Shown: positions 17,324 through 49,368 of the stretch, one piece after another
How the letters are laid out: each line of letters starts with the position of its first letter
How positions within the stretch are numbered: position 1 is the first letter of the stretch
Source: Candidatus Latescibacterota bacterium
GTDB lineage: Bacteria > Latescibacterota > UBA2968
Assembly: GCA_965204745.1 (NCBI GenBank)
Contig: OZ242010.1
Coordinates: 352,001-416,000, forward strand
Length of the DNA stretch: 64,000 nt
Reading direction: 5' to 3'
Notes under the pieces: generated by a model
Told to the model about the DNA's origin: nothing
Seen by the model: the letters and a program-made list of their open reading frames with translations, nothing else
Database searches by the model: none
Translations under genes and position numbers: made by a program

Positions 17324-17350
17324 GTGGAACTCCTTGTGGGAAGTGGAGGT

Positions 17351-33255: not shown

Positions 33256-33348
33256 ATAACAGAATGCCCGCTGAAAAGCAATCTCATCGCCGATCACTTC
33301 GACCACAAACCAAAAGCCCGATAGACAACCGCTCTACCGGGCATTTTA
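33256..33348. repeat. ~93-bp direct repeat copy 1 (terminator plus promoter-like sequence on the minus strand)
   Basis: Matches 40985-41073; contains an AAAAGCCCG...CGGGCATTTT hairpin and minus-strand TTGCTT...TATTGT. Confidence 0.75.
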
Positions 33349-33374
33349 TTTTTTTTGAATTGGATCGCTAGTGC

Positions 33375-34241
33375 CTACTGACTCAATGCGTCCTCCAAAT
33401 CCGTTAAAAACTCGTCTCCATTCTGTGGTCGTTTCGCAAAGTCATGATAGAGAGAACGATGTAGCAAATGAAAAAGTTTTTGGGGGCCTGTCCAGTCGTC
33501 TTCTGTCACAATGCCAACAGGTTGGCGGCCGGTCACCACGTACCAAAAAATGGCAGCCATTTGAAACACATCAGATGCCTCATCGATTTCATCATTGCAC
33601 CCCAGCCGTCGATTGTGAGCTTCTGGAGAAAGCCAAAATTTCGGCCCAACATTCTGCGCCTCGGGCGTCAAATCTTCTTCACCCGGATTAACAAAAGTAC
33701 AAAGCCCATAATCGCTTAGGAGCCATCGTTCGCCTGCAACCAAAATATTTTCTGGTTTAATATCCCGATGTACTGCCCGCTCATGCAAGGAAGCCAAAGC
33801 ACCTGCAAGACCGCGAAACTGGCCGGCATATCGCTCGTAACTCAACGCCCCTTCTTCGCGCATCACGTCCTGCAAGTTGCCGTCAGCCAATTCCATTGCG
33901 ACAAAGGGTAGTTGATTGTCTCGGGAAGCCTTGTTATGCCTGACGGTCACGCGCCCAGTTCCATGATATCGCGTCAGGTGATCGCCGTGCATTGCTTTGA
34001 GCAACTTTACCTCTCGCAGAAACCGTTTGGTATTTCTCCATCCGGTATTCATAAGGAATTTAATTGCACATTCTTCACCTGTGTTGCGCTGGCGACCACT
34101 GAATACCGCTGCGTTTCCCCCCCGGCCAATCCAGTTTTCAATCTCGTAGGGATCTCCCTCTTCAGTCCGAATTTCGCTTTTCAGGCTGAAAAAATTACCT
34201 CGACGTAAATGAGCCGGATCAAAATAGAGTTGGCTACTCAT
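33375..34241 (-). CDS. Hanks-type Ser/Thr protein kinase
   Basis: IGRGGNAAVF, AIK, HRDIKPEN, DYG, SPE, SDVFQ; ATGA overlap with the DUF262 gene. Confidence 0.92.
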   Translation of the reverse strand: MSSQLYFDPAHLRRGNFFSLKSEIRTEEGDPYEIENWIGRGGNAAVFSGRQRNTGEECAIKFLMNTGWRNTKRFLREVKLLKAMHGDHLTRYHGTGRVTVRHNKASRDNQLPFVAMELADGNLQDVMREEGALSYERYAGQFRGLAGALASLHERAVHRDIKPENILVAGERWLLSDYGLCTFVNPGEEDLTPEAQNVGPKFWLSPEAHNRRLGCNDEIDEASDVFQMAAIFWYVVTGRQPVGIVTEDDWTGPQKLFHLLHRSLYHDFAKRPQNGDEFLTDLEDALSQ

Positions 34242-35539
34242 CGACGCTCCAAAATTAGCCAGTCATAACGATTCTCAACGCATGAACGGTGAATCCAATC
34301 TGCATTCGAGATTTGATGCACGGTCACAGACTGGGGCCATGCCAACACGCAGTCGGTAAAATCTCCGGAAATTTCTTTATCGCAAACCGGACATGAAAAC
34401 CAAGGTGCTGGACAATAACCATATTCGTCAGCCCTGTTAAGCCCATCCTGCAATCTATAGACCACTTGAGCGCGTCCTTCGAATATTTTAGGGTCAACGG
34501 GAGCCAGTGATTTACCGACATAAGTTCCTACCAATATCGACTTGAGAAAACGATGGCGCCATCGGCGGCTCGATGCGGAGTTTGCTTGCGATACGCATTT
34601 GATAGCGTACTCACTGCAAATTTCCACATCGGACTCTGGACGGATAGTCTCCTGCAAAATCCCCAAGTCCTCTTGTAAAGGCTTTATGTCCTTGTGGTTC
34701 AAGGTTAGCCCTTGCGATACGAACTCGTCTATCACGAGAAACAAAGTGTAAAAGTCCGCTTTCTGCCGAAACCTGCTTCTCGAAATCTCAATGTCGCCAT
34801 CCGAGAATAGAACCCTCAATTCTTGCAAGACCCCGAGAAATCTCGTCTCAATTTCTTTTTTGTGACCAGCATTCCAGTTTGAATATTTGATATAGAAATC
34901 GTCGAGAGATGTTTTTTTGTTTTGTATGCCATCAATCATAGCTGCCAATAATTCTGATACGTACTCGACATCGCCGTATCTACGTCGCGTAGCTGGCGTG
35001 AAAATACCTATTTTGTCAAAATAGTCGTTCACGGCGAGTTCTTCCGAGACTTTCAGAAAGTCGCCGGGAAAATCGGCTCGTCTCAGTTCTTGTTTTCTGA
35101 GGGGCACAGTGTACTTATTGACGCGAGCATATACTTCACGCACTTCCTCGTCTGTCAGTTTTACTGCCTCATTAAAATCAATTTGGTAGCTCAAAAAACT
35201 GTCCTGTGTGTCGGGGTCTAATTCTGAAAAGGTTTTGCCTTTGTTTTTTCCCGTGAACGGATGATTTAACGCGAAGTTGTCTCGAAGAAAATCGAGAATT
35301 GCTGAAATACGCTGTTGACCGTCAATAACCACGCGATACGTGGAACCGTCACGAACAGTATTCGCCAAAAAAATTTTGGGCATTGGGATACGACGCAGGA
35401 TAGTATCCATCAACATGATGCGGGCAGCGGCAGACCACACTCCTCGCCTTTGAAAATCTGGCCGAAGTTCGAGCCGATTGGCTTCGCTCCAGTCTCGAAT
35501 GTCGGAAATAGGATGCGGGCTGGAATTCCAACGAACCAT
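34238..35539 (-). CDS. DUF262 (ParB/GmrS-like) protein with C-terminal degenerate HNH/Zn domain
   Basis: PDFQRRGVW, VIDGQQR, YARVN; C-terminal CPVC...SNADWIHRSC. Confidence 0.85.
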   Translation of the reverse strand: MVRWNSSPHPISDIRDWSEANRLELRPDFQRRGVWSAAARIMLMDTILRRIPMPKIFLANTVRDGSTYRVVIDGQQRISAILDFLRDNFALNHPFTGKNKGKTFSELDPDTQDSFLSYQIDFNEAVKLTDEEVREVYARVNKYTVPLRKQELRRADFPGDFLKVSEELAVNDYFDKIGIFTPATRRRYGDVEYVSELLAAMIDGIQNKKTSLDDFYIKYSNWNAGHKKEIETRFLGVLQELRVLFSDGDIEISRSRFRQKADFYTLFLVIDEFVSQGLTLNHKDIKPLQEDLGILQETIRPESDVEICSEYAIKCVSQANSASSRRWRHRFLKSILVGTYVGKSLAPVDPKIFEGRAQVVYRLQDGLNRADEYGYCPAPWFSCPVCDKEISGDFTDCVLAWPQSVTVHQISNADWIHRSCVENRYDWLILERR

Positions 35540-35558
35540 ATCTACCTCCTTTAGCGAG

Positions 35559-36014
35559 TTATGTCGCTTTGTGATCCCTCAGAATATCGTCAAGTGCGTC
35601 GGAGAGATTCCAGATTGGATCCAAGTCGCCATCGTGTAGCATATCTACAATATGGGGAACGCCTGCTGCTGCCAAGCCATTGGCAATAGCTATCATGCGG
35701 TGCGGATCAGCTACGATTTCCACATTACCCTCAATCGCGATGGCGACGAGCATGATTGCCTGAATGCGCCAACTGTCGCTGTCGAGAACTGAGCCGTCAT
35801 TAAACTTGCGCGGCTTTCGCTCCGACAGATCAACAGGCTTAAGTTGCATTCGCGCTGCAAGCGACAGCCCAACAAACCAGAGATCAACCTTGCGCGGAAA
35901 CGGACTTTGGTCAATGCTGGCGCGACTCGCTGTCTGGCAATAGCGTTCATAATCCGCATCTTGCTCAATAGGTACAACTAACTCAATGCTATCGAATGGG
36001 TTATGGTCTCGCAC
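35559..36014 (-). CDS. Hypothetical 151-aa protein (possible DndE-like accessory subunit)
   Basis: GTG at 36014 after GGAGG RBS; directly downstream of the DndD-like ATPase; ANGLAAAG helix. Role inferred from position only. Confidence 0.65.
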   Translation of the reverse strand: MRDHNPFDSIELVVPIEQDADYERYCQTASRASIDQSPFPRKVDLWFVGLSLAARMQLKPVDLSERKPRKFNDGSVLDSDSWRIQAIMLVAIAIEGNVEIVADPHRMIAIANGLAAAGVPHIVDMLHDGDLDPIWNLSDALDDILRDHKAT

Positions 36015-36037
36015 TGCACTACCTCCGTTCAAGATAC

Positions 36038-38176
36038 TCAGTACATTTCCGTTTCTGATTCTAAATCCATCCGTCGCTGACACAGCGTACATTCTCTGTG
36101 ATGATCGCACTCACACCGTAGCACGGTCCGCTCTTTCACCTGTGGGTCATTGATCAGCATTCGGGGATAGTGTGCCGGATTTGTCAGCGTGATTACTCGT
36201 CCCGCTTCGGCATCCAAAATTTCTTCGCAGTCTGCGATTTCAGAGCGCGTGAGAAACAGAATCAGTTGTGAACTTTCTCGGATAGCAGTCTTAAGCACCG
36301 ATCTCTTGACATAGCCACTCATCATTCCAAGCGGCGTATCAATCACATTGGGGGCTTCGACCTCACTCACCTTTGTTAAAGCGAGGATGAAAGCGAGGGT
36401 CAGTGCCCGCCGGGAAGCACCATTTAGATCGCGATCAGGATTCAATGCCCGATTATTTGGGCCATAGACCAAAATATCAAAATCCCTGCTGATCTCCGCC
36501 TTTTGAATAATTGCGTTCTGTTCGGGATCAGCACCGATCATTTTCAAAAAAATGGTGTTCATTAACCTACTGACCTTAGCGAGTTCTTCAGTTGTGATTC
36601 GGGTATAGGAATTTTCCAGAACTTGCTTGACATCCTGCGTTACTTCCAGTTGAGCTAATATACGCTCTCCTCTTTTCTGCCTCCGGAGTAGGTTATTGCG
36701 GGTTGCACTCAGAGAACTTCTCTCTTTTTCTAATGCTTCAAGTTGGGTTTCGTATCGCATTCGGTCGCCGTAGAATCGGTCGCGTTGTTCTCTATAATCT
36801 CGTATGGTAGCCCTAAGACCCTGAATGTTCGTATCCGGTATATCGTCAAGTTTTGCTTCAAGTGCCCTGCGTTTCTTTCCCAAAGAATCAAATCGGGCCT
36901 CTTGCTCGTCGCGGAGTTTGAAGACTTTGGCATATTTGGCAAGCCAAGGTTCATCCCCGGTAACTCGGTCAGGTTGGAGTGGCTGAGATAAAAAATAAAG
37001 TTCGGTGATTATTCTTTGGAGTTCATCTGCCTTTTGACTCTCATCAATCAGGCATTGGATATGATCTCTTCTGCGCTTGCCATCATCGGCGCGTGGATCC
37101 AGCGATTCACCACAAATACAAGTGGCCCTCTGGAGCCGTTCTTCGAGAACGGGAATTGTCTGGTTGGGGATCTTGCCTTGGTCACGCAACTTATTCAACT
37201 CTCCGAGACTTTGTTGCAATACGGGGGTGAGGAGATCACGCGAAAGCGAAAGGTTGCGAAACAAGTTTGAATGCTCTTTACTCGCTTCCTCTTGCTGTCC
37301 TTTGATCCGCTTGCGCTGCAACTCGGTTTGTTTGATCTCTTGCTTGAGTTCTTCCCTGTTGCCTTTGACCAAGGCGTCCTCGATCTGCTTTTGAATCTCG
37401 GCGTGCTTTTCATCGAACGCTGAAAATTGTGCCTTCGCATCCTCTATCTTTTTTTCATAGCTTGCCGAATCTTCATCTATTTGCTCCAACCGAGTTGCGA
37501 TTTGGGTAAGTTCCTCATTGGCTCCAACATTCTTTGCTGCCTTATTGATCTCAGAAGCGGCCTTTTTTACATGCCCGAGAGCATCCTCAATCACACCAAG
37601 TCCCAACAGAGATCGGATCGCTTTCTCAACGCGCTTGCGCTTGGTACTGACGGTCACAGCTACTTCAATGAAACTCAATGCACGGTCTCCATCGGTAAAA
37701 AACACTTCACGAAGTGCGGGGGGCAGTTCGTCCTCAATGAACGATTCTGGCCATTTAATAGACTCATGTCCGGTATCTGTTACTGTAAATAGTTTTACTT
37801 TTGATGGGGTATGCTCCCATTTAGTGCCGTTTAAGGCCTCAAATGCGGATCGTATAATGAGATAGCGTTGCTTGGTTTCACGCGAGCCCCTTGGGCCTCC
37901 TAACTTCGTTATCTCAAATTCGACCTGTACAGAGATCGGAATCCGGTTGCCATCTGATTCATCCCAGTCAATTGGGTGGAGACGATAATCTTGACGTTTG
38001 CCGGGCAAGGCATTGTCACCGTAGAGTGCCCATTGCAAACCATTCAAAATAGTGGTCTTCCCGGTTTCGTTCTCCGCCCGAATGACTGTCAATTTCTTTG
38101 CCGTATCTGTTGAGAAATCGAGCTTCAAATTCCGCAACAGACGAAAATTTTCAAATTCGGCGCGTATGATCTTCAC
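36038..38176 (-). CDS. DndD/Rad50-like coiled-coil ABC ATPase with CxC hook
   Basis: AENETGKTT Walker A, long coiled coils, central CICG, LNGASRR signature, VIDTPLG Walker B, C-terminal CEC...CTLC. Confidence 0.87.
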   Translation of the reverse strand: MKIIRAEFENFRLLRNLKLDFSTDTAKKLTVIRAENETGKTTILNGLQWALYGDNALPGKRQDYRLHPIDWDESDGNRIPISVQVEFEITKLGGPRGSRETKQRYLIIRSAFEALNGTKWEHTPSKVKLFTVTDTGHESIKWPESFIEDELPPALREVFFTDGDRALSFIEVAVTVSTKRKRVEKAIRSLLGLGVIEDALGHVKKAASEINKAAKNVGANEELTQIATRLEQIDEDSASYEKKIEDAKAQFSAFDEKHAEIQKQIEDALVKGNREELKQEIKQTELQRKRIKGQQEEASKEHSNLFRNLSLSRDLLTPVLQQSLGELNKLRDQGKIPNQTIPVLEERLQRATCICGESLDPRADDGKRRRDHIQCLIDESQKADELQRIITELYFLSQPLQPDRVTGDEPWLAKYAKVFKLRDEQEARFDSLGKKRRALEAKLDDIPDTNIQGLRATIRDYREQRDRFYGDRMRYETQLEALEKERSSLSATRNNLLRRQKRGERILAQLEVTQDVKQVLENSYTRITTEELAKVSRLMNTIFLKMIGADPEQNAIIQKAEISRDFDILVYGPNNRALNPDRDLNGASRRALTLAFILALTKVSEVEAPNVIDTPLGMMSGYVKRSVLKTAIRESSQLILFLTRSEIADCEEILDAEAGRVITLTNPAHYPRMLINDPQVKERTVLRCECDHHRECTLCQRRMDLESETEMY

Positions 38177-38187
38177 TTGATACCCTC

Positions 38188-38412
38188 CTATTTGGTTTGG
38201 TTTCGCTTTTCTGCGAGAAAATGACCAGCCGCGTTGAACTTGTCATTTATCTTCTTCTGAATATACGTCCCCGCGATGATGTGCTCTCTTTCATATTGAA
38301 TGATGTCGGAGATCACTTCGATCATCTCTTCCTTATATCCGTCGCATCTCTCCTCAATATCTTTACACTCCTCAATAATGATCTTGATGATTTTCCGTTG
38401 GTTGAGCGGCAT
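38188..38412 (-). CDS. Small helical protein between helicase and ATPase
   Basis: 74 aa, GGAG-type RBS, tight operon spacing on both sides. Confidence 0.7.
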   Translation of the reverse strand: MPLNQRKIIKIIIEECKDIEERCDGYKEEMIEVISDIIQYEREHIIAGTYIQKKINDKFNAAGHFLAEKRNQTK

Positions 38413-38424
38413 TGTCTCCCTTCC

Positions 38425-40689
38425 TTATGTGAAAACTGCGTTGACGAGTTCATGAATGAGGTTTAAGGGGCCGTCAGCCCGACCAGCATTTCGCGCAAGG
38501 CGGGCAAATTCCCGTATCCGTAAGAGTTCCGAGCGAATCAGAATGCGGCCCTCATCGTCGATATCATCCATATCCGGCGGCAATGCGACAAAGTCGTGAA
38601 TTTCGCTATGCGTCTTGCCAATTTCTCGGCATGTGCGGAGAAGTCGCCCGCGACGTTGCACCCATTGTCGTTCCACTGTGGTGCTTGCGAGGATAAAAGC
38701 CTTTTCAATTTGCGGAATATTCACTCCTTCGTCAAGTACTCGCTTTGCGGTAAGGACGCGGTGTGTGCCTTCCTGAAAGGATTGGATAATGTGCGTTGTC
38801 TCATCGCGGTTCGCTGTCTCTACATGGGTAAGTTGGTGAGAAATTACGCCGTGTTTCTTTAATAGCGCGTTGACAGCGTCGAGTTGTTGCGGTGCCTTAT
38901 CCGAGGCATAAATCAAGGTGTGGCGGAGCGTCCGAAGGTCTTCGCGCATCAAGGCTTTTTCCAAAACGGCAATTTTATTTTTTGCATTTTCCAAGAGTGC
39001 CCGTCGATCCCTCAATAACTTGGTGAGATACTCATCGGGTCCCCCGTCCTCCTGACGCCAAGCATTTGCCTTAATTTTTGCGGTCAAAGCATACCACTCA
39101 TCCATCTCATCCCGCGTGAGTTCTACCGGATGGACATAGTAGTCGTATTCAACGAGACAGCGTCCAATGGCCTCGTTGAGCGTGAACTGAAAAACAACCG
39201 GACCGAAAAACGAAAACAGGGCTTCTGTGCCTTCGACGTCATATTGGCGAATGGGCGTTGCCGAAAGTCCGAGTCTGTAATCAAAGAAAGAGGGTGGATC
39301 GGCAATAAATCCTTCGCTTCCCAAATTGTGTACCTCGTCCGCGATGAGCAAAGTCGCGCAATCAAACTTTTTGACTTCAGTCTTAAACGCGCTATTGCAC
39401 AGCGTGCGGTGAGAAACGACGACAACTTCAACCTCGCTCATTCCATTTCGGAACCGCCGTTTGAGTTTACTGAGTTCCCAGGCCCGTCCGCGTACGCCAT
39501 TCGCCTCGGTCAGATTAATTGCCTTGAGTCCAAAGGGCGCGATCTCATCACACCATTGTTGAATGAGCGGGACATAGGGAGCCGCCACAACAATCAGCAG
39601 TGGTTTGCGTGCTTCATAGAGCCTGTGGGCGCAAATCATGGCTGTGATCGTCTTGCCCGATCCAGTCGCCATTTCCAAGACCCCTTGATGGCCGGCCTCG
39701 CACCAAGCATTTACTGCTTTGCCTTGGTGTTCAAATGGCCCGTCCTCGAATTGGAGATATGAGGGTATCGCAAATGAGCCGTAGGATTTAGAAGATTCCT
39801 CCATGACCGAAAATCTATTTGCTCGGGTATAAAGTGCTCGCAGGTCGGCCTCCGTTGGCGGGATGTTTGAGCGATAGGTTTGCAACAAACGGTCCCGGAT
39901 AGCTCGAGGCATCGCAACGACGATACAATTATCGTCCTTATTTTTCCAAAGCCGCTCGAAATGCTCACAAAACTTTTCTGTGATATAGTGCTGATTGCGA
40001 TCTTCCCACGATTTGGAAATGGAAATTTGCTCAATATTCTTTGCAACACCCGCATAAGTCAGGTTGCTCGATCTGTGTGCTGCAATTACATCATCACTTC
40101 CACGAAAAAGCCAAACCTTTGGATGGAAAAGCGCGTCTTTCATCAGAGCAATTTTGATTTTTACGCGCCCGCTACGCAACAACCACGAAAGACATTTTAG
40201 CGTGTGTTTCTGAATGAGGTCTTCTGTAACAACGATATCTTCTAAAGCGGCACTAGCGATATTTTCAGGAGTGATCACTCCTTTTTCGATAGCGACCTTG
40301 TCTTCGGCCCGGAGAAGGGGACTGATGATCAGGCGAAAACTTTCTTGTGAGCCGTTGACAAAGGTAGCCAACCCTGGAGCTAGCGATGCCAAAACCTCAC
40401 TGGAAAAGAAGCCCACCATACAATCGACTTGGGCAGCCGTTTGAAAACACGGAATAAGCACCTCTTCTGTCACAGGATCATCAGGTAGCATATAGAGCGG
40501 CCTGCTATTGGACACAGCGCGAAGATGCACGCCATCAATCCCTGCCACCTTCAACCCCCTATCAGGTGCCGCTTGGACAACTGATCCGCCAAAGTGCTTG
40601 CGTCCGGGTCCAACTTTTCTCACTTGCAAGGTTCGCAAGTCATACTCTGGCCTCAGTTCATCCTGCAATGTTGTCTCATCCTTCCTCAT
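38425..40689 (-). CDS. PLD(HKD)-like domain plus SF2 (ResIII/DEAD) helicase, with BrnA-like N-terminal segment
   Basis: FHPKVW..SSNLT; MATGSGKT, ADEVH, GLSAT, DEGVNIP, QRRGRLLR. Start is ATG 40689 or an internal GTG at 40548. Confidence 0.87.
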   Translation of the reverse strand: MRKDETTLQDELRPEYDLRTLQVRKVGPGRKHFGGSVVQAAPDRGLKVAGIDGVHLRAVSNSRPLYMLPDDPVTEEVLIPCFQTAAQVDCMVGFFSSEVLASLAPGLATFVNGSQESFRLIISPLLRAEDKVAIEKGVITPENIASAALEDIVVTEDLIQKHTLKCLSWLLRSGRVKIKIALMKDALFHPKVWLFRGSDDVIAAHRSSNLTYAGVAKNIEQISISKSWEDRNQHYITEKFCEHFERLWKNKDDNCIVVAMPRAIRDRLLQTYRSNIPPTEADLRALYTRANRFSVMEESSKSYGSFAIPSYLQFEDGPFEHQGKAVNAWCEAGHQGVLEMATGSGKTITAMICAHRLYEARKPLLIVVAAPYVPLIQQWCDEIAPFGLKAINLTEANGVRGRAWELSKLKRRFRNGMSEVEVVVVSHRTLCNSAFKTEVKKFDCATLLIADEVHNLGSEGFIADPPSFFDYRLGLSATPIRQYDVEGTEALFSFFGPVVFQFTLNEAIGRCLVEYDYYVHPVELTRDEMDEWYALTAKIKANAWRQEDGGPDEYLTKLLRDRRALLENAKNKIAVLEKALMREDLRTLRHTLIYASDKAPQQLDAVNALLKKHGVISHQLTHVETANRDETTHIIQSFQEGTHRVLTAKRVLDEGVNIPQIEKAFILASTTVERQWVQRRGRLLRTCREIGKTHSEIHDFVALPPDMDDIDDEGRILIRSELLRIREFARLARNAGRADGPLNLIHELVNAVFT

Positions 40690-40810
40690 AGTCTTGTCTC
40701 TCTCTGCGGGTTGTTTCTCTTGCACTGATCAAACGAATCGCATCCCCTCGTTCGGTGTATGATACGATTAACAAACGACCGCGATTTGATGACGCTATCG
40801 ACATCATCTG
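40676..40810 (-). pseudogene. brnT: C-terminal remnant of BrnT family toxin
   Basis: SNRGRLLIVSYTERGDAIRLISARETTRRERQDYEEG*; the N-terminal half is absent. Confidence 0.8.
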
Positions 40811-40984
40811 CGGTTTTGGCGACGTACAGCTCTTTGAAAAGCTCAGGCAGTTGTATAAAGTCAAACCTCCTGTGATGTTGAGTATTAAGACGAAATTTCA
40901 CATGCGTTACATTGTTTGCAAAGCAAAGTAACAGATGTATGATGAATCGACAAGCACGCTTGGCAAAACGCAGTGAATTTTAAC

Positions 40985-41073
40985 ATAACAGAATGCCCAC
41001 TGAAATGTAATCTCATCGCCGAGCACCGCTACCACAAACTAAAAGCCCGATGGACAACCCCACCGAGCTTTTT
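40985..41073. repeat. ~90-bp direct repeat copy 2
   Basis: Matches 33256-33348. Confidence 0.75.
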
Positions 41074-41125
41074 GTATTGTCAATGTTTCAATCTTTCGAG
41101 ACGAGTCCATCCTGATCATTCCGAT

Positions 41126-42559
41126 CTAAGATATAGCAGATTTCTGGTCTTTAATCTCCTGCCATATTTCGTCAGCACTTTTGTGAAGTTTTAGCTGAAT
41201 TTCCGGACGTATAAGTAAATTTTTCCAAAGGTCTCGCAGTTCTACAACCTCATTTTCGTCTAATTCATCAAGACCAATTACCCACTGTTGTATCCTTTTA
41301 CCGCAACGGATGACCTGCGTCCTGTCCTCACTTCTCATAGTCCAGCGATTCTTCCAGCGCGTAGTGCGGAGAATTAAAACAAAGTCTCTCCATGGCGGGT
41401 GATGGAGCCGCCATTCCAACTGATTAAGTCCCTTTAATGCCTCTTTTACAGTATCAAGGGTCGGGTTTTCTAGATCGGGAAGACGTTTGTCAAGTAACTT
41501 GCGTACGATTTCTGCTAGCATCTGTTGTCCGATAGGCCAAAATAGGAGATGATCGCTTTCACTTTTATCTTCCTCATCCTCTTTGAGCTCATGAGTTCGC
41601 ATATAGATTGGCTCTTCGGAGAGATCAGGTATCTCATCAATTAAAGCCTTCCAATACATTGTCAATTCGTTAGAAAGTTCATCAATGTATTTTTCAGATG
41701 GACGGAACCGTTTGAACGTTTTCAGATCTGTACCTTCTTCTTCGATTGGGCCCCAACCATTGTTCTCTCTCTGTCGAGAACAGAGCAATTTAACGTTCAT
41801 CTCGTACAAGGTTTCAAGGCTTGTAAAGTATGGATCTCCTGTTTTGAGGTTTTTGCCCTTCTGTGTCTTAATGCGCCTTGATTTACTCTGTATGCCGGCC
41901 GATTTGAAGAAATCGTTGTCAGTAATCAAACGCCGCGTGAGAATGGCAAATGTATCATCCTCATCCATGATAATGTTAGTTGCCTGATCCGTGGGTTTGG
42001 CATAGCGATTGAGATTTGAGAATAGCCGGCGATACTTTGGCATGAAATTTTTATTTGCATCTTCTCGTCGCTCTGGCACAATTACAATGACGGAGAACTC
42101 ATCATTCTCGAAGCCCTCTGGAGCACCATCGGACAACGGATTATTTCGATCAAGAAGGGTCTTGATAGCTGATAGGCGATGTTGACCATCTAAGGCATAG
42201 TATTTCTGCGTTCCATCAAACTTCAATACACCAAACGCTTCATTAAGCCGTCGATCATCACGAAAAATTGCAAATTGAGGATCGTCTGTGATTTCAACGG
42301 GATAAAACATTGGATCTCCCTCAAGAGCCGCGACAACAATAGAGGAAAAGAAGCGATCCTGTTGGCGTTTCAAATACTCCACAATTTCTTTCTTAACTCT
42401 GCCTTCATTCAATGTACGCTGGATTGCCTCATCAAGGGTGCGATCCTCATAGACTTCAGAAGCATACTTCACATTTTCACTTAGCTCACGTGCGCTCATT
42501 TTGACGACATAGTAGTTCCAAGAGCCCATTTGAGAACGTAAAGCAGGATAAATATTCAT
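41126..42559 (-). CDS. DGQHR-domain protein (DndB-like)
   Basis: IQRTLN, FFSSIVVA, ALDGQHRL, LFSNLNRYAKP. Confidence 0.88.
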   Translation of the reverse strand: MNIYPALRSQMGSWNYYVVKMSARELSENVKYASEVYEDRTLDEAIQRTLNEGRVKKEIVEYLKRQQDRFFSSIVVAALEGDPMFYPVEITDDPQFAIFRDDRRLNEAFGVLKFDGTQKYYALDGQHRLSAIKTLLDRNNPLSDGAPEGFENDEFSVIVIVPERREDANKNFMPKYRRLFSNLNRYAKPTDQATNIIMDEDDTFAILTRRLITDNDFFKSAGIQSKSRRIKTQKGKNLKTGDPYFTSLETLYEMNVKLLCSRQRENNGWGPIEEEGTDLKTFKRFRPSEKYIDELSNELTMYWKALIDEIPDLSEEPIYMRTHELKEDEEDKSESDHLLFWPIGQQMLAEIVRKLLDKRLPDLENPTLDTVKEALKGLNQLEWRLHHPPWRDFVLILRTTRWKNRWTMRSEDRTQVIRCGKRIQQWVIGLDELDENEVVELRDLWKNLLIRPEIQLKLHKSADEIWQEIKDQKSAIS

Positions 42560-42596
42560 GAGTTAATCCTCCAAAAAATTTAAGGGTTTATCACTA

Positions 42597-43028
42597 CTAA
42601 GCAGGTCGAGGAGTGCCTAGCTTCGCAGGGATAGTTCCAGATATGCGATTTGCCGGTGGGCCAAAACATTCGATTAGACGCGCCTCAAGTTCGTCAATCC
42701 GGTCAGGATTCACTTCAGTGTACCAATATTCAAGATTATCACCAAAGCATTGTTTTGCTTGCTTAACCCCTCGCTCTGGTCTGCGACAGTGCTCAAGAAA
42801 TCGGCGATTAAGAGAGCGAGACTTGCCAACATAAATAATCTCATATAAAGCCTTAAACAAGCTTTGTTTGAAATCAGTTAGTTTAGCACAGATAGCATAT
42901 ACTCCTGACTTCTTGGGAACACTGTCACGACAACTTTGATCCAATTGTGTCTTTGACCAACGTGTTTTACTGACAACTCGCCTCAAGTGATCCCACTCTT
43001 GCTTTTCAAGTGTCCAACCGTGTCGCAT
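42597..43028 (-). CDS. GIY-YIG nuclease family protein
   Basis: PKKSGVYAI...IIYVGKS..L..RF.EH...LE..LI....PPAN. Confidence 0.82.
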   Translation of the reverse strand: MRHGWTLEKQEWDHLRRVVSKTRWSKTQLDQSCRDSVPKKSGVYAICAKLTDFKQSLFKALYEIIYVGKSRSLNRRFLEHCRRPERGVKQAKQCFGDNLEYWYTEVNPDRIDELEARLIECFGPPANRISGTIPAKLGTPRPA

Positions 43029-43067
43029 AATTATATCACACTTTGGATAAGATACTGAAGAAAGAAC

Positions 43068-43091
43068 TTTTACACAACCCTTTGTGTAAAA
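43068..43091. promoter_or_regulatory. Perfect AT-rich inverted repeat, operator-like
   Basis: TTTTACACAA-ccct-TTGTGTAAAA between sspD and the GIY-YIG gene. Confidence 0.45.
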
Positions 43092-43115
43092 ATTTGTGCA
43101 GGGTACTTAGATATG

Positions 43116-43922
43116 TCACAAATGGCAAATCGCGCACCCTTCGGTCTCTTCGATCATCGGCAAGTCTTTGAGGGGTTGGTTTGCGATGTCGTCTAAGGTC
43201 TTCCCATCCACCCATGTGAATTTCTTCCCGTTCTTCACCTGCTCGTATTCCTTTGCCTTTTCAAACAAATCGGGATGTTCTCGTTTTAATCTTTGCCATT
43301 CCCCAACTTGCTGGTAGAAGCAAAAGTAGCACCCCGACCGCGACCGCCAGTTGTAATACTCGGGCAGTCCAAGCCCCGATTCCTCTAAAATCCGCTTAAT
43401 ATCTGCCAAGCCAAGGCCGTCGTCCTTAAATGGATAAACGGGAATGATGTTGGGCTGTTGAGAAATTGAGGGCGGTTTTTTGGCGATGTACCCATCGCGG
43501 TCTTCGTCGTCGCGGATGCCGATATAGCTATACGCCCGGCTGTCGCCAACATAATCTTCAAACGGTTCAATTTTCAACACGCGCGTACACCACCGCGATC
43601 TCGGGCTGGGCAAATAGCCGCCGTATATCTCGTTCAAATACATATCGAACGGATTGCGCCCGGGCTTTTTCTCCACCCGCAAACCGTCGAGTGCGTTCAG
43701 GCGGCGAACACTAACGCCGAGCAGTGCCTCCAAGCACTCCAGATATTCATACGTTTCATCCAACTCACATCCGGTATCGCAGAACACGTACTCCGCAGGG
43801 ATTTGCGGATAATTCTGCCGCATATAGACAGCGAGAGCCGCGGAGTCTTTGCCCCCCGAAACACTGACGATATGCCGAATGTCATCGGACAGATTGTTCA
43901 ATGCGTCTCGTATGGTTGCCAT
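43116..43922 (-). CDS. sspD: PAPS-reductase family protein, SspD-like
   Basis: SVSGGKDS PP-loop, FCDTG.EL, RWCTRVLK, GIR.DE, RSRSGCYFCFYQ, C-terminal CAICHL. Confidence 0.85.
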   Translation of the reverse strand: MATIRDALNNLSDDIRHIVSVSGGKDSAALAVYMRQNYPQIPAEYVFCDTGCELDETYEYLECLEALLGVSVRRLNALDGLRVEKKPGRNPFDMYLNEIYGGYLPSPRSRWCTRVLKIEPFEDYVGDSRAYSYIGIRDDEDRDGYIAKKPPSISQQPNIIPVYPFKDDGLGLADIKRILEESGLGLPEYYNWRSRSGCYFCFYQQVGEWQRLKREHPDLFEKAKEYEQVKNGKKFTWVDGKTLDDIANQPLKDLPMIEETEGCAICHL

Positions 43923-46900
43923 GCGAATCCTTTCCGTTATGGTCTTTGAGAATATGTGCAAATAAGGCCCGCGCTTCTTCCGGGCCGACGATAAGGGCTA
44001 AACGCCCATACAATTCCCGCACGCGCTCCTGCACCAAATTCGCCAATCCGTCTTTGACCGCGCCGTTCGCCTGAAATTCAAACGACAGTGCTCTTTCCTC
44101 GATGCGCCGCACTGCGCTGTGAATTTCGCTGTCAAAAATCGCGCTGTTGCTGTCATCCCACCGGTTGAGCGTCTTGCGAAACAGCAAGCCGGACAATGAG
44201 TCGATGAGTTTGGCATCGGACGGATACGGCATACGCAGGCGAGAGAGAAGCCCTTTTGCCGTGCTGTCAGTCAGCGCGTTGGATAGCTCATCGGGAAAAC
44301 ACAATGCCCACTGGCGAGCGACCGCGTGTACGCATCCATTTTGGGTTTCTCGGTTCGCAGGCAGTGCCCTACGCAAAGAAGCAATCGCTTCTTTCCGATA
44401 ACCGTCAATGACCGCAGAGAGTTCACATTTACAGGTTTCGAGGGATTCCAACAAGGAGTGTTGCTCGTCAATTGCGTGTTTTAATGCAGTTGGAATGCGC
44501 TCAAATAGCAGGTGTACCGGATTGGACTGCTGGCGAATTGCCTTTTGAAAGCGACGGGTCAATGGGGTTAAATGCACGGTTGACAGCGCGCCGGTCGGAA
44601 GCGTCGTCTTCCAGCTTTCAAGCGCGTCATAGCAGGCCCGAATGAGATCATTACCGGTTGTTGAACTTGCGCTCGCAACAAAGAGATCATAAACCGCGTT
44701 GAGATACGCTCGTTTTGGCTGATCGATGTCTAAGACGACAAATTCAAACCTTTCCGGTTCGCGGCATAACTGTTCGATGACAGAGGGCAAAATATCGGAT
44801 ACGTAGGTCCCTTCACGGTGGAGAGAATACGCACTCGGAAAGGCTTTGAGACCTGCGGCAAAGAAAATGGGCAGCACCCCGGCGCGAACCCCGAAAGGCG
44901 GATCCATCAGTTCATCAAAGAATCCTCGAATATCCTTTGGGGCTTTTGCGGGGGTTGTCAAAAATGCGCGAACTTTGTCCCAAACCTCTTTTATCCCCTC
45001 GTCCTCCACTTCATCGGGCATCGCATAACGCCAGCGTCCGTCGTCTTTTTTGTATAACCCGGTATGCAACAGCACTGTGCGGAACATGGACGAATCCGGA
45101 AAATTGCCTTCGAGGCCCAAATTCTCCTGACCTGATCGCTCCAATACACCGAGCAGGAGTTTCTTGCGCGCATTGACCACAATGGGGGACGGTTTGTGCC
45201 GCACGATCATCTCATTGTTGATGATGGGCGTTTGGTGGAAAATTTTTGACATGAGATTGGACAGTTCATCCCGCAAGTCATACGCGCTTTTGACGGGCAA
45301 TGCGTTCCCCCTGTAAAAATAGCGCGGCCCATCGCTGCTCGGCTGGATCAACCGGTCGAGGAGCGTTTGAAGATGGGCATGGGCATCGTCGGTCATAAGT
45401 TGAATTTCGGACGACACATGCGGGTCTGAGTCTATCAGCTTATCATCGCCTTGCATCTGCATCAAACACCACACTTCCAAAGCCATCTCAAATAGGGGGA
45501 TGGGCGCGCGGGGTATCGCAAGAACAACCCTTTCGTTGCGTAGGCGTTTTGCCGCGCGCTCTGCTTTTCGCAATTCCTCTGCTGTCTCGGCAATGACATA
45601 CACACAAATGCCATCGCAACCAACGGGCATCTTACGCAAAGAAATCTCGGCCTCCAAGTATTCGGATAATTGTTTCAAACAGCAATACGCGCCTTGCGAG
45701 AAACGCCTGATGCAAAACTCGCTGTTATACCTCACGGGGCGCCATACGGGCGGGGGGGCTTCTTCGGTCAAAAACGCAATGAACTCAAAAGTAGCCCGCT
45801 GTCGCAATTTCTCGTCTTCAAGCCTGCCCCGAAGATCGGCATCTGTCCCATGCCAAACGGAAACCTCATCGCTGTGTTTTCTGTGTAACAGGTGTTTCCC
45901 GTCTATGAGTTGGTCAATAACCGTTTCTGCCCGCTGTGATCCCGTGGTGCCATAGCCGCACAGGGCAAAGTGCAACAAAGCGCGAGTCGCGTGTGACCGC
46001 TCGCCATGGACACCAAAACCCAAGAGGCTTGCTGTTTTCAGTGTTGTTGCCGCCAAGTCATCCGCGTCGTCCAACTTTGAGAGGGCATTTTGCGTTTCGA
46101 GCCACTGCCTGTAGGTGCCTCCGACGGCTGTATCTGCACGCATATCCGATGAAAAGTATTCGTAGAGATGGTCGGGCCTAATGAGATTTTGCAAATCCAT
46201 AGCATTGAGAAAACTGAACAGGGTCCTCTCGTTTTGCGCCACGCGCCCGGACATGCGGGGCAGCAAATATAGGGTCGTCGGCTCTAGGGGATATGCCCGG
46301 CGCAAAAGCGACTGAAGTTCCGACGGGTCAAAATCGGCAAACAGGCCGAGTTGTTTGCACGCTTCTGCCACCAAGGTTGCTCGTTTGGCTGTCAAGGCAC
46401 AAGGGCTATTCTGTCTGTCGGCAAACATGCCGAGTTGGGGAGAATCATTATTCGCCCCTACTTTTGCACAAGGGCTATTCTGGTTGAAAACCACTCCTGA
46501 TATGAGGCGGTAGATCTCCTTGCTGTCGTCTATGTACTGAATCGTCTGAAAACGACCCTCAATTTTTCGCCACTCTGCGCGCACTGTTTGTGGGGAGTTG
46601 CTCGCGTACTGAAACAATTCTTGGTGGAGCAACAGGCCGAGCGTCATCGGAATGCCATGAGACCGATTGACAAACTCCGCCAACAATTGGATTTCACTCA
46701 AAGCGACGGAACGCCCCTCAGAAATCAACGACTCGATGTGGCGTCCGAACTCATCCCACAAAATCGAGACCCGATCACAGCCGGTCGCACGCGCTTTGTC
46801 CCGAACCACGCCGAGCAATTCAATGGCCTGTTCAATCGTCTCAGAGGGCATTGACGCAATGGCACGCGCTTGCCGGCCCAACTTCATACGCCGCATCCCC

Positions 46901-47307
46901 TCGAGCGCGGCGTCTTTTAGGCTTTCGCTCAAATTTCGACAATGGTCCTGCAAGACCAGCACGATCCCTTTGTCTTTGCCCTTGCGGCGTTCTTGGGAAA
47001 ATTTGCCCAAACCCGGACTGACGACGTGAAGCCTGTCTTCAATCGCCGTGAGCGTATCATCGGCCTCGGCGCGGTTCTCGATCAAGTGCAACAAATAGGT
47101 CGCTGTAATTGATTTGCCCGTGCCATAAGGCGCGACCACAAAAAACGCCCTGTCTCGTTCAAGACCGAGCAGGGATTTGATGAGCGGGACACTTTTGGCC
47201 GTGGGTTGGTAATGCGCGATCCGATGCGGATATGCTGCGTCGTACGATATGTTGATGGAACGAAGAAATGCTTCGGTGGCGAACGCGACTGGTTTTTCAT
47301 GCGGCAT
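43882..47307 (-). CDS. sspC: Large P-loop ATPase, SspC-like
   Basis: RSINISYD, APYGTGKS, WDEFGRH, EWRKIEGRF, YPL, QNERTLFSFL, PPFGVRAG; lies between DUF4007 and PAPS-reductase genes. Confidence 0.85.
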   Translation of the reverse strand: MPHEKPVAFATEAFLRSINISYDAAYPHRIAHYQPTAKSVPLIKSLLGLERDRAFFVVAPYGTGKSITATYLLHLIENRAEADDTLTAIEDRLHVVSPGLGKFSQERRKGKDKGIVLVLQDHCRNLSESLKDAALEGMRRMKLGRQARAIASMPSETIEQAIELLGVVRDKARATGCDRVSILWDEFGRHIESLISEGRSVALSEIQLLAEFVNRSHGIPMTLGLLLHQELFQYASNSPQTVRAEWRKIEGRFQTIQYIDDSKEIYRLISGVVFNQNSPCAKVGANNDSPQLGMFADRQNSPCALTAKRATLVAEACKQLGLFADFDPSELQSLLRRAYPLEPTTLYLLPRMSGRVAQNERTLFSFLNAMDLQNLIRPDHLYEYFSSDMRADTAVGGTYRQWLETQNALSKLDDADDLAATTLKTASLLGFGVHGERSHATRALLHFALCGYGTTGSQRAETVIDQLIDGKHLLHRKHSDEVSVWHGTDADLRGRLEDEKLRQRATFEFIAFLTEEAPPPVWRPVRYNSEFCIRRFSQGAYCCLKQLSEYLEAEISLRKMPVGCDGICVYVIAETAEELRKAERAAKRLRNERVVLAIPRAPIPLFEMALEVWCLMQMQGDDKLIDSDPHVSSEIQLMTDDAHAHLQTLLDRLIQPSSDGPRYFYRGNALPVKSAYDLRDELSNLMSKIFHQTPIINNEMIVRHKPSPIVVNARKKLLLGVLERSGQENLGLEGNFPDSSMFRTVLLHTGLYKKDDGRWRYAMPDEVEDEGIKEVWDKVRAFLTTPAKAPKDIRGFFDELMDPPFGVRAGVLPIFFAAGLKAFPSAYSLHREGTYVSDILPSVIEQLCREPERFEFVVLDIDQPKRAYLNAVYDLFVASASSTTGNDLIRACYDALESWKTTLPTGALSTVHLTPLTRRFQKAIRQQSNPVHLLFERIPTALKHAIDEQHSLLESLETCKCELSAVIDGYRKEAIASLRRALPANRETQNGCVHAVARQWALCFPDELSNALTDSTAKGLLSRLRMPYPSDAKLIDSLSGLLFRKTLNRWDDSNSAIFDSEIHSAVRRIEERALSFEFQANGAVKDGLANLVQERVRELYGRLALIVGPEEARALFAHILKDHNGKDSHGNHTRRIEQSVR

Positions 47308-48187
47308 GGCGATTTCTCCGTTGGATGGCTCGGTAGTGATTTTTCAGCCAAGCGATGGGTTGCATTTTTGGAATGCGTATCCTCCGATCTCCGGCGAGAT
47401 CGACCACGCGGATATCGGCGTTTGGATCCGTTTCTTCAGCATTGAGCGCGAGCGCGAGTAGCGCATCAACGGTCAGGACAAATGCTTTGCCGGGGCCACC
47501 GGGGATCGTTGTCGCCTCTCTCGCGGATATATCGACTGTATCCCGTCCTTCCCTGGCTTCCTCCAATGCGCTGGCGAGGGCATATCCGAGTAAATGCGGG
47601 GGAATCGCCTTTTCGCCTCGATGCACTTGGTAATCTCCCGATGCGTGAAAATGGCTCAACAAACCGAGTTCGACAAATGGACATTCGAGCGCGTCTTCCG
47701 GGTCGTCGCAGGTCGTTGGAATGGATCGGGCATAACTCTGCAAAAGACAAGCCACATCTCGCTCGAGCGTCCTCGGCCTAGGCGGGCGATATTGTTGCAG
47801 ATAGCGCGACAACTTGTCGATGCACACGGCCCGCTTAAATCGGGCTTGATTAAATTCGTTGAAAAACCATTGCCATGTAAAGGCGCGATTTTCGGGATGC
47901 ACCAGGTTGACGTGCAAAGCCCACCATGTTCCGATTTCGACAAAATAGGGATCGCGCTCGTAAATCAGCCGGGCGAGGTCGGTTGCATCCAACGCAGACC
48001 GCATTCGCACGGCCAGCCCCGTGACCTCCAACCAGTGGCGGATAGAGCGGGACATATTTTTGCCAACGCCGAGCCGATCCGCAACGTATTTGTCAAACAT
48101 CTGATCGGGGTCTTCGATGAGCAGCTTAAGCCCTTTGTGAAGCCAGCCTTCCCGAATCGCAAATGTTTCGTGGCCGCTAAATTTCAT
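47297..48187 (-). CDS. sspB: DUF4007 family protein, SspB-like
   Basis: MKFSGHETFAIREGWLHKG, LGVGKNM..IRHWL, DPYF..TWWALH, PFVELGLL; start ATG 48187 after GGGGAG. Confidence 0.88.
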   Translation of the reverse strand: MKFSGHETFAIREGWLHKGLKLLIEDPDQMFDKYVADRLGVGKNMSRSIRHWLEVTGLAVRMRSALDATDLARLIYERDPYFVEIGTWWALHVNLVHPENRAFTWQWFFNEFNQARFKRAVCIDKLSRYLQQYRPPRPRTLERDVACLLQSYARSIPTTCDDPEDALECPFVELGLLSHFHASGDYQVHRGEKAIPPHLLGYALASALEEAREGRDTVDISAREATTIPGGPGKAFVLTVDALLALALNAEETDPNADIRVVDLAGDRRIRIPKMQPIAWLKNHYRAIQRRNRHAA

Positions 48188-48195
48188 GATCTCCC

Positions 48196-49368
48196 CTATT
48201 CGTCCGAGAATCGTTTGAACCTGAAAAACCGACGCAACTGGTCGCACAATCGCGCGAGATGTGCAACCGCCTCGTCAACCTCTTCCATTGTGTTGAACTC
48301 CGAAAAGCTAAACCGGATACTCGAGTATGCCTCGGGTTCGGAAAGGCCCATTGCACGCAACACGTACGAGGGTTCGGGCCGCTGATTGGTGCATGCAGAA
48401 CTCTGTGAACACCGGACCCCTTCTCGATCCAACCGCGCCACGAGTGCCTGACCATCCACACCGCGAAACAGCAAATTGGTCGTATTGCCAACCCGCGCAC
48501 TGGGATCGCCGTTAATCGCCACATCGGGCACGCGCTCCATGACGGACTGCTCAAAACGGTCCCGAAGTGAAGCCGTAAATTCTCGCACGGCCGCGAACCG
48601 ATCCAATCGCACTTTGGCTGCGGTTCCCATGCCAATAATGCCTGGTACATTTTCTGTTCCCGGGCGCAACCCACCTTCTTGAGTCCCGCCCCAGAGCAAC
48701 GGGAATAACGCTTTGGTCGCTTTTACATACATTGCCCCAATCCCCTGTGGGCCGTGGAATTTATGCGCGGTAAAAGTCAAAAAATCAATGGGCAGTTCCG
48801 CTATTGAGATGGGCAACTTGCCAACGGCCTGCGCCGCATCCGTGTGAAATAAGACCCCTCGGGATCGACAAAGCCGCGCAATTTGTTCAATGGGCGAAAT
48901 CGCGCCCGTCTCATTATTGACCCATTGCACGGAGACCAAATCGGTATTTGGCGAGATGGCGTTGTCCAGCATTGCCCAATCCAACTGCCCACAGCGATCC
49001 ACGGGTATAGCTACGACCTCAACGCCTGTTGTGCCGAGATAGTCACACATTTTCACAATAGACGAGTGTTCCACAGTCGTCGTCACAATGCGAACCGGTT
49101 GTTGTGCGCGTTGCACAACCGAATTAAAGACCGTGTTGTTGGCCTCGGTGCCACTTCCCGTAAAGACGAGTTGATCGGCCGCGGCACCGATCAACTTTGC
49201 CACGGCCTCACGCGCTACAACCATGGCTTCGCGCACGCGGTCGCCTGCTGAATGCGCGCTCGACGGATTGCCAAAATCCGCGCCCAAAACGCGCATCATC
49301 GCCTCGCGGACTTCGGGCAATGGTTGCGTCGTGGCGTTGTTGTCCAAATATATTTCGCGTCTCATCAT
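48196..49368 (-). CDS. sspA: Cysteine desulfurase (IscS/SspA/DndA-like)
   Basis: YLDNNATT, GNPSS, HTDAAQ, TAHKFHGP (PLP lysine), SQSSAC (catalytic Cys). Confidence 0.9.
   Translation of the reverse strand: MMRREIYLDNNATTQPLPEVREAMMRVLGADFGNPSSAHSAGDRVREAMVVAREAVAKLIGAAADQLVFTGSGTEANNTVFNSVVQRAQQPVRIVTTTVEHSSIVKMCDYLGTTGVEVVAIPVDRCGQLDWAMLDNAISPNTDLVSVQWVNNETGAISPIEQIARLCRSRGVLFHTDAAQAVGKLPISIAELPIDFLTFTAHKFHGPQGIGAMYVKATKALFPLLWGGTQEGGLRPGTENVPGIIGMGTAAKVRLDRFAAVREFTASLRDRFEQSVMERVPDVAINGDPSARVGNTTNLLFRGVDGQALVARLDREGVRCSQSSACTNQRPEPSYVLRAMGLSEPEAYSSIRFSFSEFNTMEEVDEAVAHLARLCDQLRRFFRFKRFSDE

Follow-up and report, generated by a model that had tools for sequence, protein, structure and literature searches.

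Which proteins read phosphorothioate (PT) marks where an SspABCD module stands without its described partners? This question is raised by a locus of Candidatus Latescibacterota bacterium in assembly GCA_965204745.1, contig OZ242010.1, positions 352,001 to 416,000 (this whole stretch of 64,000 nucleotides (nt), numbered from 1, is called the window). PT defence systems have been described as pairings of Dnd with DndFGH, of Dnd with Pbe, and of Ssp with either SspE or SspFGH, and the SspABCD of the type system writes single-strand PT at CpsCA. In the window twelve minus-strand open reading frames (ORFs), intact and co-oriented, extend from 49368 to 33375 (window features are on the minus strand unless stated otherwise). 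A check of the ORF coordinates places them where the original prediction, made from the sequence alone, had located the locus. Its domain calls were all upheld by scans with Pfam, PADLOC and NCBIfam, and so was its statement that the eight genes downstream of sspABCD include no canonical SspE and no SspFGH (no PADLOC match to SspE, SspF, SspG or SspH). These eight genes had been regarded as a non-canonical effector set; four of them, however, match the named and already known PbeABCD system, so that this designation does not hold for them; a match to a named system was the first ground for refutation that the original prediction itself had set. It is rather probable that the locus is a composite PT defence island, in which one modification module is followed by three separable downstream modules. 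Known modules are newly combined in it, and two accessory pairs, conserved and apparently undescribed, are added to them.

As had been predicted, the locus opens with a complete sspABCD, all four proteins of which have PADLOC matches. The cysteine desulfurase gene sspA (48196-49368, 390 aa; PADLOC SspA 4e-130, DndA 5e-129; Pfam Aminotran_5 6e-76) overlaps by 52 nt with sspB (47297-48247, 316 aa), which encodes the DUF4007 DNA-recognition and nicking subunit (PADLOC SspB 1e-110 over profile positions 1-292 of 293; Pfam DUF4007 2e-62). An overlap of 11 nt leads to sspC (43882-47307), a large ATPase of 1141 aa (PADLOC SspC 1e-162, profile positions 4-1050 of 1054) that shows a weaker PADLOC match to BrxC and no match in Pfam or NCBIfam, and a further one of 80 nt to sspD (43116-43961), a PAPS-reductase-like sulfur transferase of 281 aa (PADLOC SspD 4e-93; Pfam PAPS_reduct 2e-10). 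The PADLOC matches extend over nearly the whole length in SspA, SspB and SspC and over profile positions 1-222 of 277 in SspD. By homology this module is shown to be a putative single-strand PT writer. The host genome, a single contig of 5.48 Mb, contains just two PAPS_reduct matches, namely sspD and a 259-aa ORF at 3.87 Mb, and no DndC anywhere; because there are only these two matches, Ssp is apparently the sole PT writer available to Pbe here. Genome-wide, the best SspE match reaches 42.8 bits, covers the N-terminal DUF262 only and is located far from the locus, and the SspH model finds nothing (SspF and SspG were searched at the locus only).

The four genes encoding a PLD-helicase, a 74-aa protein, a CxC ATPase and a 151-aa protein are assigned to PbeABCD by profile matches and gene order. 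This cassette was described in the order helicase-nuclease, 66-aa protein (the size of PbeB in H. jeotgali), SMC-like ATPase and 152-aa protein (PMC6459918) and has been re-annotated as HKD-superfamily 2 (SF2) helicase, small rapidly evolving protein, CxC-clade ATP-binding cassette (ABC) ATPase and DndE cognate (Krishnan 2024, PMC10853773). In the window the pbeA ORF (38425-40725, 766 aa), with an HKD/PLD nuclease domain and an SF2 helicase, matches PADLOC PbeA with 2e-195 over residues 78-750. Its helicase domains ResIII, DEAD and Helicase_C score above the Pfam cut-offs, an H-x-K ... S-S-N motif is seen in the translation, and the match to TIGR04095 ("DNA phosphorothioation system restriction enzyme") reaches 368.7 bits, under the cut-off of 600. 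Most PbeA homologues align just from residue 56-73 onward; PbeA probably does not include the N-terminal ~65 residues of the ORF, and the true start is probably GTG 40530 or ATG 40491. The 74-aa gene pbeB (38188-38412) lies between its neighbours with gaps of 12 and 11 nt, and its product matches no family in Pfam, PADLOC or NCBIfam. A PbeA scan of one genome per species yielded 28 loci of 58-85% identity (fetched loci carry L numbers and genomes of the phylum scan G numbers, with L048 = G073, L045 = G082 and L049-L051 = G133, G134 and G146), and pbeB is found between pbeA and pbeC in 28/28 of them, with 38-80% identity (tblastn). The ATPase gene pbeC (36038-38176, 712 aa; PADLOC PbeC 2e-49) encodes a CxC-clade ABC ATPase with coiled coil, an AAA_23/AAA_15 domain and a C-I-C motif mid-protein. 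The original prediction had linked this protein to DndD, which is ruled out as the PbeC model beats the DndD model (2e-34) and the CxC motif is present. At its C-terminus a Cys/His-rich tail (C-x-C ... H-H ... C-x-x-C) is encoded around 36038-36110.

The last gene of the cassette, pbeD (35559-36014, 151 aa from ATG 36014; 183 aa in the full ORF, 35559-36110), was detected by tblastn at the same position in 27/28 loci, the exception being L011, where the contig ends inside pbeC. Since neither of the two small proteins matched a hidden Markov model (HMM), they were tested by synteny and structure. An AlphaFold model of PbeD, based on an alignment of 25 sequences from which L015 was left out because of a stop codon in the reference, has a predicted local distance difference test score (pLDDT) of 90.4. 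Compared with 48,161 chains by VIA-align, it ranks two DndE chains at the top (7x4e_A with Z 8.9, root-mean-square deviation 3.5 and 111 aligned residues; 5wtu_A with Z 7.5), followed by a relaxosome chain (Z 6.9) and Arc (Z 4.0). In Foldseek nothing reached E <= 0.001, and DndE took the second rank at E 2, which is not significant; a search of the PDB sequences with a PbeD profile brought up no relevant chain. By size, position and modelled fold, the 151-aa protein is predicted to be the DndE-like, double ribbon-helix-helix PbeD. In cassette order and protein sizes (~700, ~70, ~700 and ~150 aa), as well as in its place beside PT genes, the locus resembles DndCDEA-PbeABCD of Haloterrigena jeotgali (Xiong 2019), a type of system characterised by blocking virus replication in a PT-dependent way, whereas the writer in the window is sspABCD with DUF4007 and an SspC-type ATPase, DndC is missing and two extra gene pairs are present.

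What is new with respect to the searched literature is therefore the joining of Pbe to Ssp and not to Dnd. In the open literature that was searched, sspBCD was not found linked with pbeABCD, nor, within PT loci, DGQHR with a GIY-YIG partner or DUF262 with a kinase; supplements lay outside its scope and a prior tabulation is possible. Among 2,678 sspBCD loci, 7.3% have been found with sspFGH and 7.4% with sspE (Wang 2021, PMC8092258, where Pbe is never mentioned), and these low shares leave room for other Ssp partners. With SspABCD-SspFGH the window locus has in common a multi-gene restriction partner beside sspBCD (PMC8092258), and it differs in the lack of SspF, SspG and SspH homologues. A recurrent Ssp-Pbe junction links two orphan sets, namely the ~85% of the 2,678 sspBCD loci without a reader and the 320/553 pbeAC without a writer. 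It also raises the mechanistic question of how PbeC and PbeD, cognates of the DndD-DndE recognition pair of a double-strand writer, handle the single-strand marks of SspB/SspC.

How often are the two modules joined? In 21/28 PbeA loci sspB, sspC and sspD are all found within 10 kb (tblastn with the window proteins; rows under 30% query coverage were dropped, in the PbeA-locus survey being kept if above 80 bits), and in these 21 sspD usually ends within ~300 bp of pbeA. The ssp and pbe genes have other orientations in L017, L019, L027 and L028. Only sspD is present in L003, L006 and L009, a weak sspD match occurs in L018, and none of the ssp genes turned up in L008 and L023, whose contigs end there, or in the 10-kb flanks of L025. 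According to their record titles the 21 loci belong to Latescibacterota, Poribacteria, Chloroflexota (Dehalococcoidia/Caldilineaceae), Acidobacteriota and Pseudomonadota (Oleispirillum). The original prediction had tied the downstream genes to sspBCD, and tblastn of the fetched loci indeed finds them together in other genomes. Between the window and the Poribacteria-type loci (L004-L026) SspB and SspC are just 22-35% identical, compared with 66-73% for PbeA, 54-62% for PbeC and 50-56% for SspD; this divergence would point either to fast-evolving recognition subunits or to Pbe cassettes moving between Ssp lineages. In Poribacteria-type loci a further gene may stand between sspD and pbeA: an SspE-like DUF262+DUF1524 protein (774 aa) in L015 (7585-9909), an NsnA-like DUF262 protein (417 aa) in L026 (8693-9946) and a HATPase_c protein (638 aa) in L003 (7975-9891).

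A less biased sample is provided by all 168 genomes of the window's phylum. They contain 15 full-length PbeA loci and one truncated at a contig end, and sspD is present in 44 genomes. In 6/16 of these PbeA loci (G000, G087, G089, G060, G128 and G122) sspD adjoins PbeA; the other PbeA loci include at least one, G073, that is a classical pbeABCD-dndBCDE locus. Ssp-Pbe is thus one of several pairings, neither the rule nor a one-off.

The best comparative argument comes from the slot after sspD within the genus of the window. Nine other species have sspD, 87-91% identical to that of the window in the eight fetched loci, and what follows the gene varies. In G078 it is SspE (PADLOC 3e-268, 890 bits) with an 813-aa protein; in G088 a convergent SspG/DndH-like module recognised by PADLOC, with a module in G083 that matches it in ORF layout (the likeness being one of layout alone); in G081 an MzaB-like protein together with a PLD-helicase whose relationship is to the PbeA N-terminal part; in G074 a 594-aa helicase with an MzaB-like protein; in G072 GIY-YIG and DGQHR genes alone; and in G087, G089 and the window pbeABCD. 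Because the contents of this slot vary in such a way, Pbe appears to take the place of the Ssp restriction partner. A near-identical sspABCD with five or more partners in one genus amounts to a natural experiment on partner exchange. In a blastn comparison with the closest relative, L001, the window is aligned at 49367-43109 and 40790-35596. The part in between is unaligned, so that sspD and pbeA are set apart by an indel of 2.3 kb, formed by the GIY-YIG and DGQHR genes; the DUF262 and kinase genes are absent from L001 as well. In place of these last two, after pbeD, L001 has ParB_N, HTH_ParB and a weakly metallo-beta-lactamase-like gene (15352-17944). Metagenome contigs from three runs contain joints that skip GIY-YIG and DGQHR (40781>43109, 40790>43118, 40872>43118) or the genes from pbeA to the kinase (33347>40780, 33347>41086). 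They were not counted, since their shorter sides measure 28-30 letters (the bar being 31) and the runs are metagenomes; sister species may be the source of such joints, or else the hairpin repeat described below, which is present in two copies.

The two accessory pairs are the other downstream modules. Behind pbeD, the DUF262 gene (34238-35539) encodes a protein of 433 aa (Pfam GmrSD_N 1e-19; PADLOC NsnA 1e-39) with a ParB-DUF262 domain, a conserved helical region and a C-terminal Cys cluster; a DGQQR motif is invariant across 58 DUF262 sequences. It shares 4 nt with the gene of a Hanks-type Ser/Thr kinase of 288 aa (33375-34241; Pfam Pkinase 9e-28; PADLOC PD-T4-6 2e-38 and mad6 2e-38), in which the catalytic Lys and the HRD...N, D-Y-G and S-P-E positions are invariant in the alignment (the pair P0122/P0236 was left out of the DUF262 and kinase alignments A6 and A7 because of odd lengths). 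SspE was considered for the 433-aa protein and rejected, since GmrSD_N is its only domain, with neither a DUF1524 nuclease domain nor a PADLOC SspE match. The DUF262 protein found no relevant chain among the PDB sequences. Its structure model is poor (mean pLDDT 62.5, residues 1-157 under 50) and gave no significant Foldseek match, the top one, to the PT-sensing DndI (9jfl_A, E 0.14), not being counted. A complex prediction for DUF262 protein and kinase with 58-row alignments scored 0.27, 0.41 and 0.00 and was counted neither way.

In all loci seen here the kinase gene adjoins a DUF262 gene. A metagenome scan gave eight loci, in six of which the kinase follows DUF262 directly, the contigs of the remaining two ending there. 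At least sspD is present in four of the eight (L031, L033, L034, L035), L030, L032 and L036 being too short to judge the presence of ssp genes and L029, with the order pbeABCD-DUF262-kinase, covering only 3 kb of upstream sequence. The composition of these loci differs: L031 contains SspFGH-DUF262-kinase with convergent ssp genes (PADLOC SspF 7e-123, SspG 2e-199, SspH 0), and L035 resembles it in layout (the likeness again being one of layout alone), with a convergent sspD; in L033 the pair is located beside sspA and sspBCD, and in L034 a differently ordered Pbe cassette is followed by the pair and then by convergent ssp genes. Within the phylum, G060 shows sspBCD-pbeABCD-DUF262-kinase with a pair 72% and 82% identical to the window proteins, and in G122 the two halves sit at contig ends. 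A single case without sspD match is G082, where an insertion sequence (IS) related to that of the window splits the DUF262 gene. In L002 (15134-17024) pbeD is followed by an NsnA-like DUF262 protein, 27% identical to that of the window over the N-terminal domain, and then by a SIR2_2 gene instead of the kinase; because SIR2 holds the kinase place there, a sensor with exchangeable effectors would fit. Both families are large, with at least 120 clusters each at 56% or more identity to the window protein, and for 58 among the top 120 DUF262 clusters the longest contig is exactly as long as that of a top-120 kinase cluster, an agreement that serves only as a proxy for linkage.

The other pair precedes pbeA. 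It comprises a small GIY-YIG nuclease of 143 aa (42597-43028; Pfam GIY_YIG_2 5e-6 and GIY-YIG 3e-5, both above cut-off) and a DndB-like DGQHR protein of the ParB superfamily (41126-42559, 477 aa; Pfam DndB 9e-37; TIGR03187 107.9 bits, cut-off 58.85), which found no relevant chain among the PDB sequences. The DGQHR motif is invariant in the alignment of homologues, and together with the GIY, YIG, Arg and Glu positions it is kept in the homologues of L016, L017 and L039. With an HMM built from four small GIY-like ORFs and run on all ORFs of the fetched loci, a GIY-like ORF was detected directly upstream of DGQHR in 15/18 DGQHR-bearing loci (the misses being L045, L050 and L051). Fourteen of the 18 have sspD; L048, L059 and L060 have pbe genes, L048, the one of these three that was covered by a scan for dnd genes, bearing dndBCDE in addition, and L045 has neither ssp nor pbe gene. 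Among the 24 DGQHR matches in the phylum, 12 have sspD on their own strand at a distance of up to 6 kb and 3 adjoin a Pbe cassette. In PMC10853773 URI/GIY-YIG is listed among the nucleases of Dnd neighbourhoods, in a section that does not describe this pair.

Both pairs have relatives in known systems. The window shares the writer with SspABCD-SspE (PMC9646914), and its DUF262 and DGQHR proteins are members of the ParB superfamily, as is the N-terminal domain by which SspE senses PT; unlike in SspE there is no DUF262+DUF1524 fusion, and the GIY-YIG nuclease and the kinase are encoded by separate genes and have a different fold. With Menshen NsnABC (PMC12065111) the locus has in common a DUF262 protein that matches the NsnA sensor model, whereas NsnB and NsnC partners are missing and the kinase is fixed beside the DUF262 gene and Ssp loci; a kinase is never mentioned in the Menshen paper. 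Menshen was also rejected for the DUF262 gene and the nearby ATPase, as the next gene is the kinase and the ATPase is HEC-01A with a weak NsnB match. The kinase resembles PD-T4-6, whose models it matches with its catalytic residues intact.

From these elements the following working of a composite island can be proposed. The marks set by sspABCD would label self DNA and the downstream modules would exploit the label, pbeABCD filling the restriction-partner slot that is held by SspE or SspFGH in other Ssp loci. PbeC and PbeD may scan DNA, PbeA would then block or cut unmarked invader DNA, and PbeB might be a small regulatory subunit. GIY-YIG and DGQHR could form a split analogue of SspE, with a ParB-superfamily NTPase or sensor and a separate nuclease. 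The DUF262-kinase pair, presumably transcribed with pbeABCD, would correspond to an SspE-like sensor that lacks the nuclease and is coupled to a kinase, which may arrest the infected cell by phosphorylation. Both ParB-superfamily proteins would thereby be extra sensors of PT or DNA, the DGQHR protein acting through a nuclease and the DUF262 protein through a kinase, and the accessory pairs are testable candidates for PT sensing with outputs other than DNA nicking. A more far-reaching version, which we put forward tentatively as a possibility, is that one single-strand PT writer serves three readers, of which DUF262-kinase and GIY-YIG/DGQHR would be new kinds of PT effectors. The DUF262 sensor might then turn PT status into phosphorylation or, with SIR2 in sister species, into depletion of nicotinamide adenine dinucleotide (NAD) instead of DNA cutting, and the GIY-YIG nuclease with the DGQHR NTPase could replace PbeA beside PbeBCD. 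If this were true, Ssp-Pbe would explain part of the ~85% of partnerless sspBCD loci and part of the "solitary" pbeAC.

Several observations weigh against a functional island. PT modification, PT dependence and antiviral activity of the locus are what we infer from its genes. The 28 loci are not independent samples because they represent one PbeA clade, and within the phylum 10/16 PbeA loci and ~42/48 sspD loci are not mutually adjacent; 9/24 DGQHR matches lie away from sspD and pbe or on other contigs. The Pfam PLDc_2 match of PbeA is weak (23.4 bits, under the cut-off of 27), and the aspartate of its PLD domain is off the canonical HKD spacing. The PADLOC models of PbeB and PbeD do not match the 74-aa and 151-aa proteins, nor does Pfam DndE, and promoter-like sites are not in excess (19 vs 16.6 in shuffled sequence). 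Moreover, PD-T4-6 is reportedly a single-gene defence system.

The alternative that survives best, unlikely as it appears to us, is that mere co-location in a defence island is seen, with sspABCD as an orphan or epigenetic writer and three independent modules that do not read PT. Defence genes cluster in islands anyway; the GC content is a mosaic, the locus is bordered by a candidate HEC-01 system and by an IS transposase, and a toxin remnant lies inside it. Such independence would also suit the pbeAC described as "solitary", without PT genes (320/553; PMC6459918), the argument that Pbe-type (CxC) systems may act alone, by which their PT dependence is questioned (Krishnan 2024, PMC10853773), the fact that most sspD loci of the phylum are without PbeA, and the PADLOC resemblance of the kinase to the stand-alone PD-T4-6 and of the DUF262 protein to Menshen NsnA. 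It is harder to reconcile with the recurrence of the same junctions across five phyla, where the gaps measure tens to hundreds of bp, or with ssp genes being present in every DUF262-kinase locus that has at least 5 kb of flank on the relevant side. DUF262-kinase, in addition, follows two unrelated Ssp partners, Pbe and SspFGH, GIY-YIG and DGQHR stand directly after sspD in 9 genomes, and one genus has SspE or an SspG/DndH-like module after sspD in some species and Pbe in others. The composite island remains the preferred reading.

For the GIY-YIG and DGQHR pair a different role has to be considered, which we regard as quite improbable: the DGQHR protein might regulate ssp expression or PT density in the manner of DndB, and not act as an effector, and GIY-YIG might be a repair or nicking helper for the modification. 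DndB has been described to regulate dnd transcription negatively (as cited in PMC10853773), the DGQHR gene lies within the apparent sspABCD transcription unit, and in G055, G050, G135 and G144, as often, such a gene follows sspD with no other effector nearby. However, the score against the DndB equivalog TIGR03233 is 56.7 bits at a cut-off of 328, and a nuclease-fold protein accompanies DGQHR in most loci (15/18). In G073 the pair even sits between pbeD and a canonical DndB (5e-155), and because both coexist there the window-type DGQHR protein is apparently a paralogue and not the DndB regulator. Canonical DndB was rejected for the 477-aa protein on the grounds of the equivalog score, the lack of dndC and this coexistence. 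The genes of G133 are arranged as sspD-pbeB-pbeC-pbeD-GIY-DGQHR and pbeA is missing between sspD and pbeB, so that DGQHR is located after pbeBCD where pbeA would be; G134 and G146 resemble it (the GIY ORF was undetected in both and pbeD in G146). This arrangement suggests that the pair may supply a nuclease to a PbeBCD core.

The genes stand close together: pbeA, pbeB, pbeC, pbeD and the DUF262 gene are separated by 11-23 nt. Only between DGQHR and pbeA is there a long gap (400-630 nt), and in it lie a hairpin resembling a terminator and what is left of a BrnT-type toxin gene. On the coding strand, the two best terminator-like hairpins come after DGQHR (41041-41072, 14-pair stem) and after the kinase (33316-33342, 10-pair stem with T-rich tail). 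They align as copies 1 and 2, respectively, of a direct repeat of ~50 nt (33290-33380 and 41015-41105), whose 19-nt core is found twice in the window, the expected number being 0.01. It looks like there are two putative transcription units, sspA-DGQHR and pbeA-kinase, each ending in a hairpin copy. The original prediction's reading of the eight downstream genes as one obligate, new multi-protein effector of Ssp marks is highly improbable: they are co-oriented and tightly spaced, and pbeA to kinase may be one transcript, yet the three modules occur apart in relatives (pbeABCD without the other four genes in L001, GIY-YIG and DGQHR only in G072, SspFGH with DUF262 and kinase in L031), L002 has a SIR2 protein in the kinase place, and hairpin and toxin remnant split DGQHR from pbeA into what are apparently two transcription units.

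Between them the two hairpin copies enclose 7.7 kb, with the BrnT remnant at one end and the kinase at the other, and they may mark a recombination or cassette boundary. The remnant itself (40679-40813; Pfam BrnT_toxin 3e-9, 37.4 bits, cut-off 34.5) is a C-terminal fragment covering profile positions 43-77 of 77, with stops upstream in frame. It is followed by a short piece ending L-R-P-E-Y-D-L-like that runs in frame into the annotated pbeA start, remnant and piece together occupying 40531-40813. From this region a stretch of about 100 nt recurs in four sister genomes, with 77-90% identity in L002, L041 and L042 and as part of the alignment with L001; the stretch is single-copy in the genome of the window, and its position relative to the effector genes differs in L002, L041 and L042.

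The composition of the region is foreign to its surroundings, the GC content being 0.45-0.49 over 34-44 kb and 0.53-0.54 over the ssp genes against a background of ~0.57; there are no tRNA genes within the window. Directly downstream of the kinase lie genes for a HEC-01A-like AAA_21 ATPase (403 aa) and a HEC-01B-like DUF4276 protein (218 aa; both within 31373-33174). PADLOC reports them as a candidate HEC-01 system flanking the kinase end (HEC-01A 1e-138, HEC-01B 2e-66, the ATPase also matching NsnB weakly with 1e-16), and the junction of kinase and HEC-01 is syntenic in the sister genome G082. Just upstream of sspA, on the plus strand, an IS DDE transposase gene is found (49576-50604). Its relatives in G082 are 67-73% identical, and one of them is the element that splits the DUF262 gene there (L045 14890-15912).

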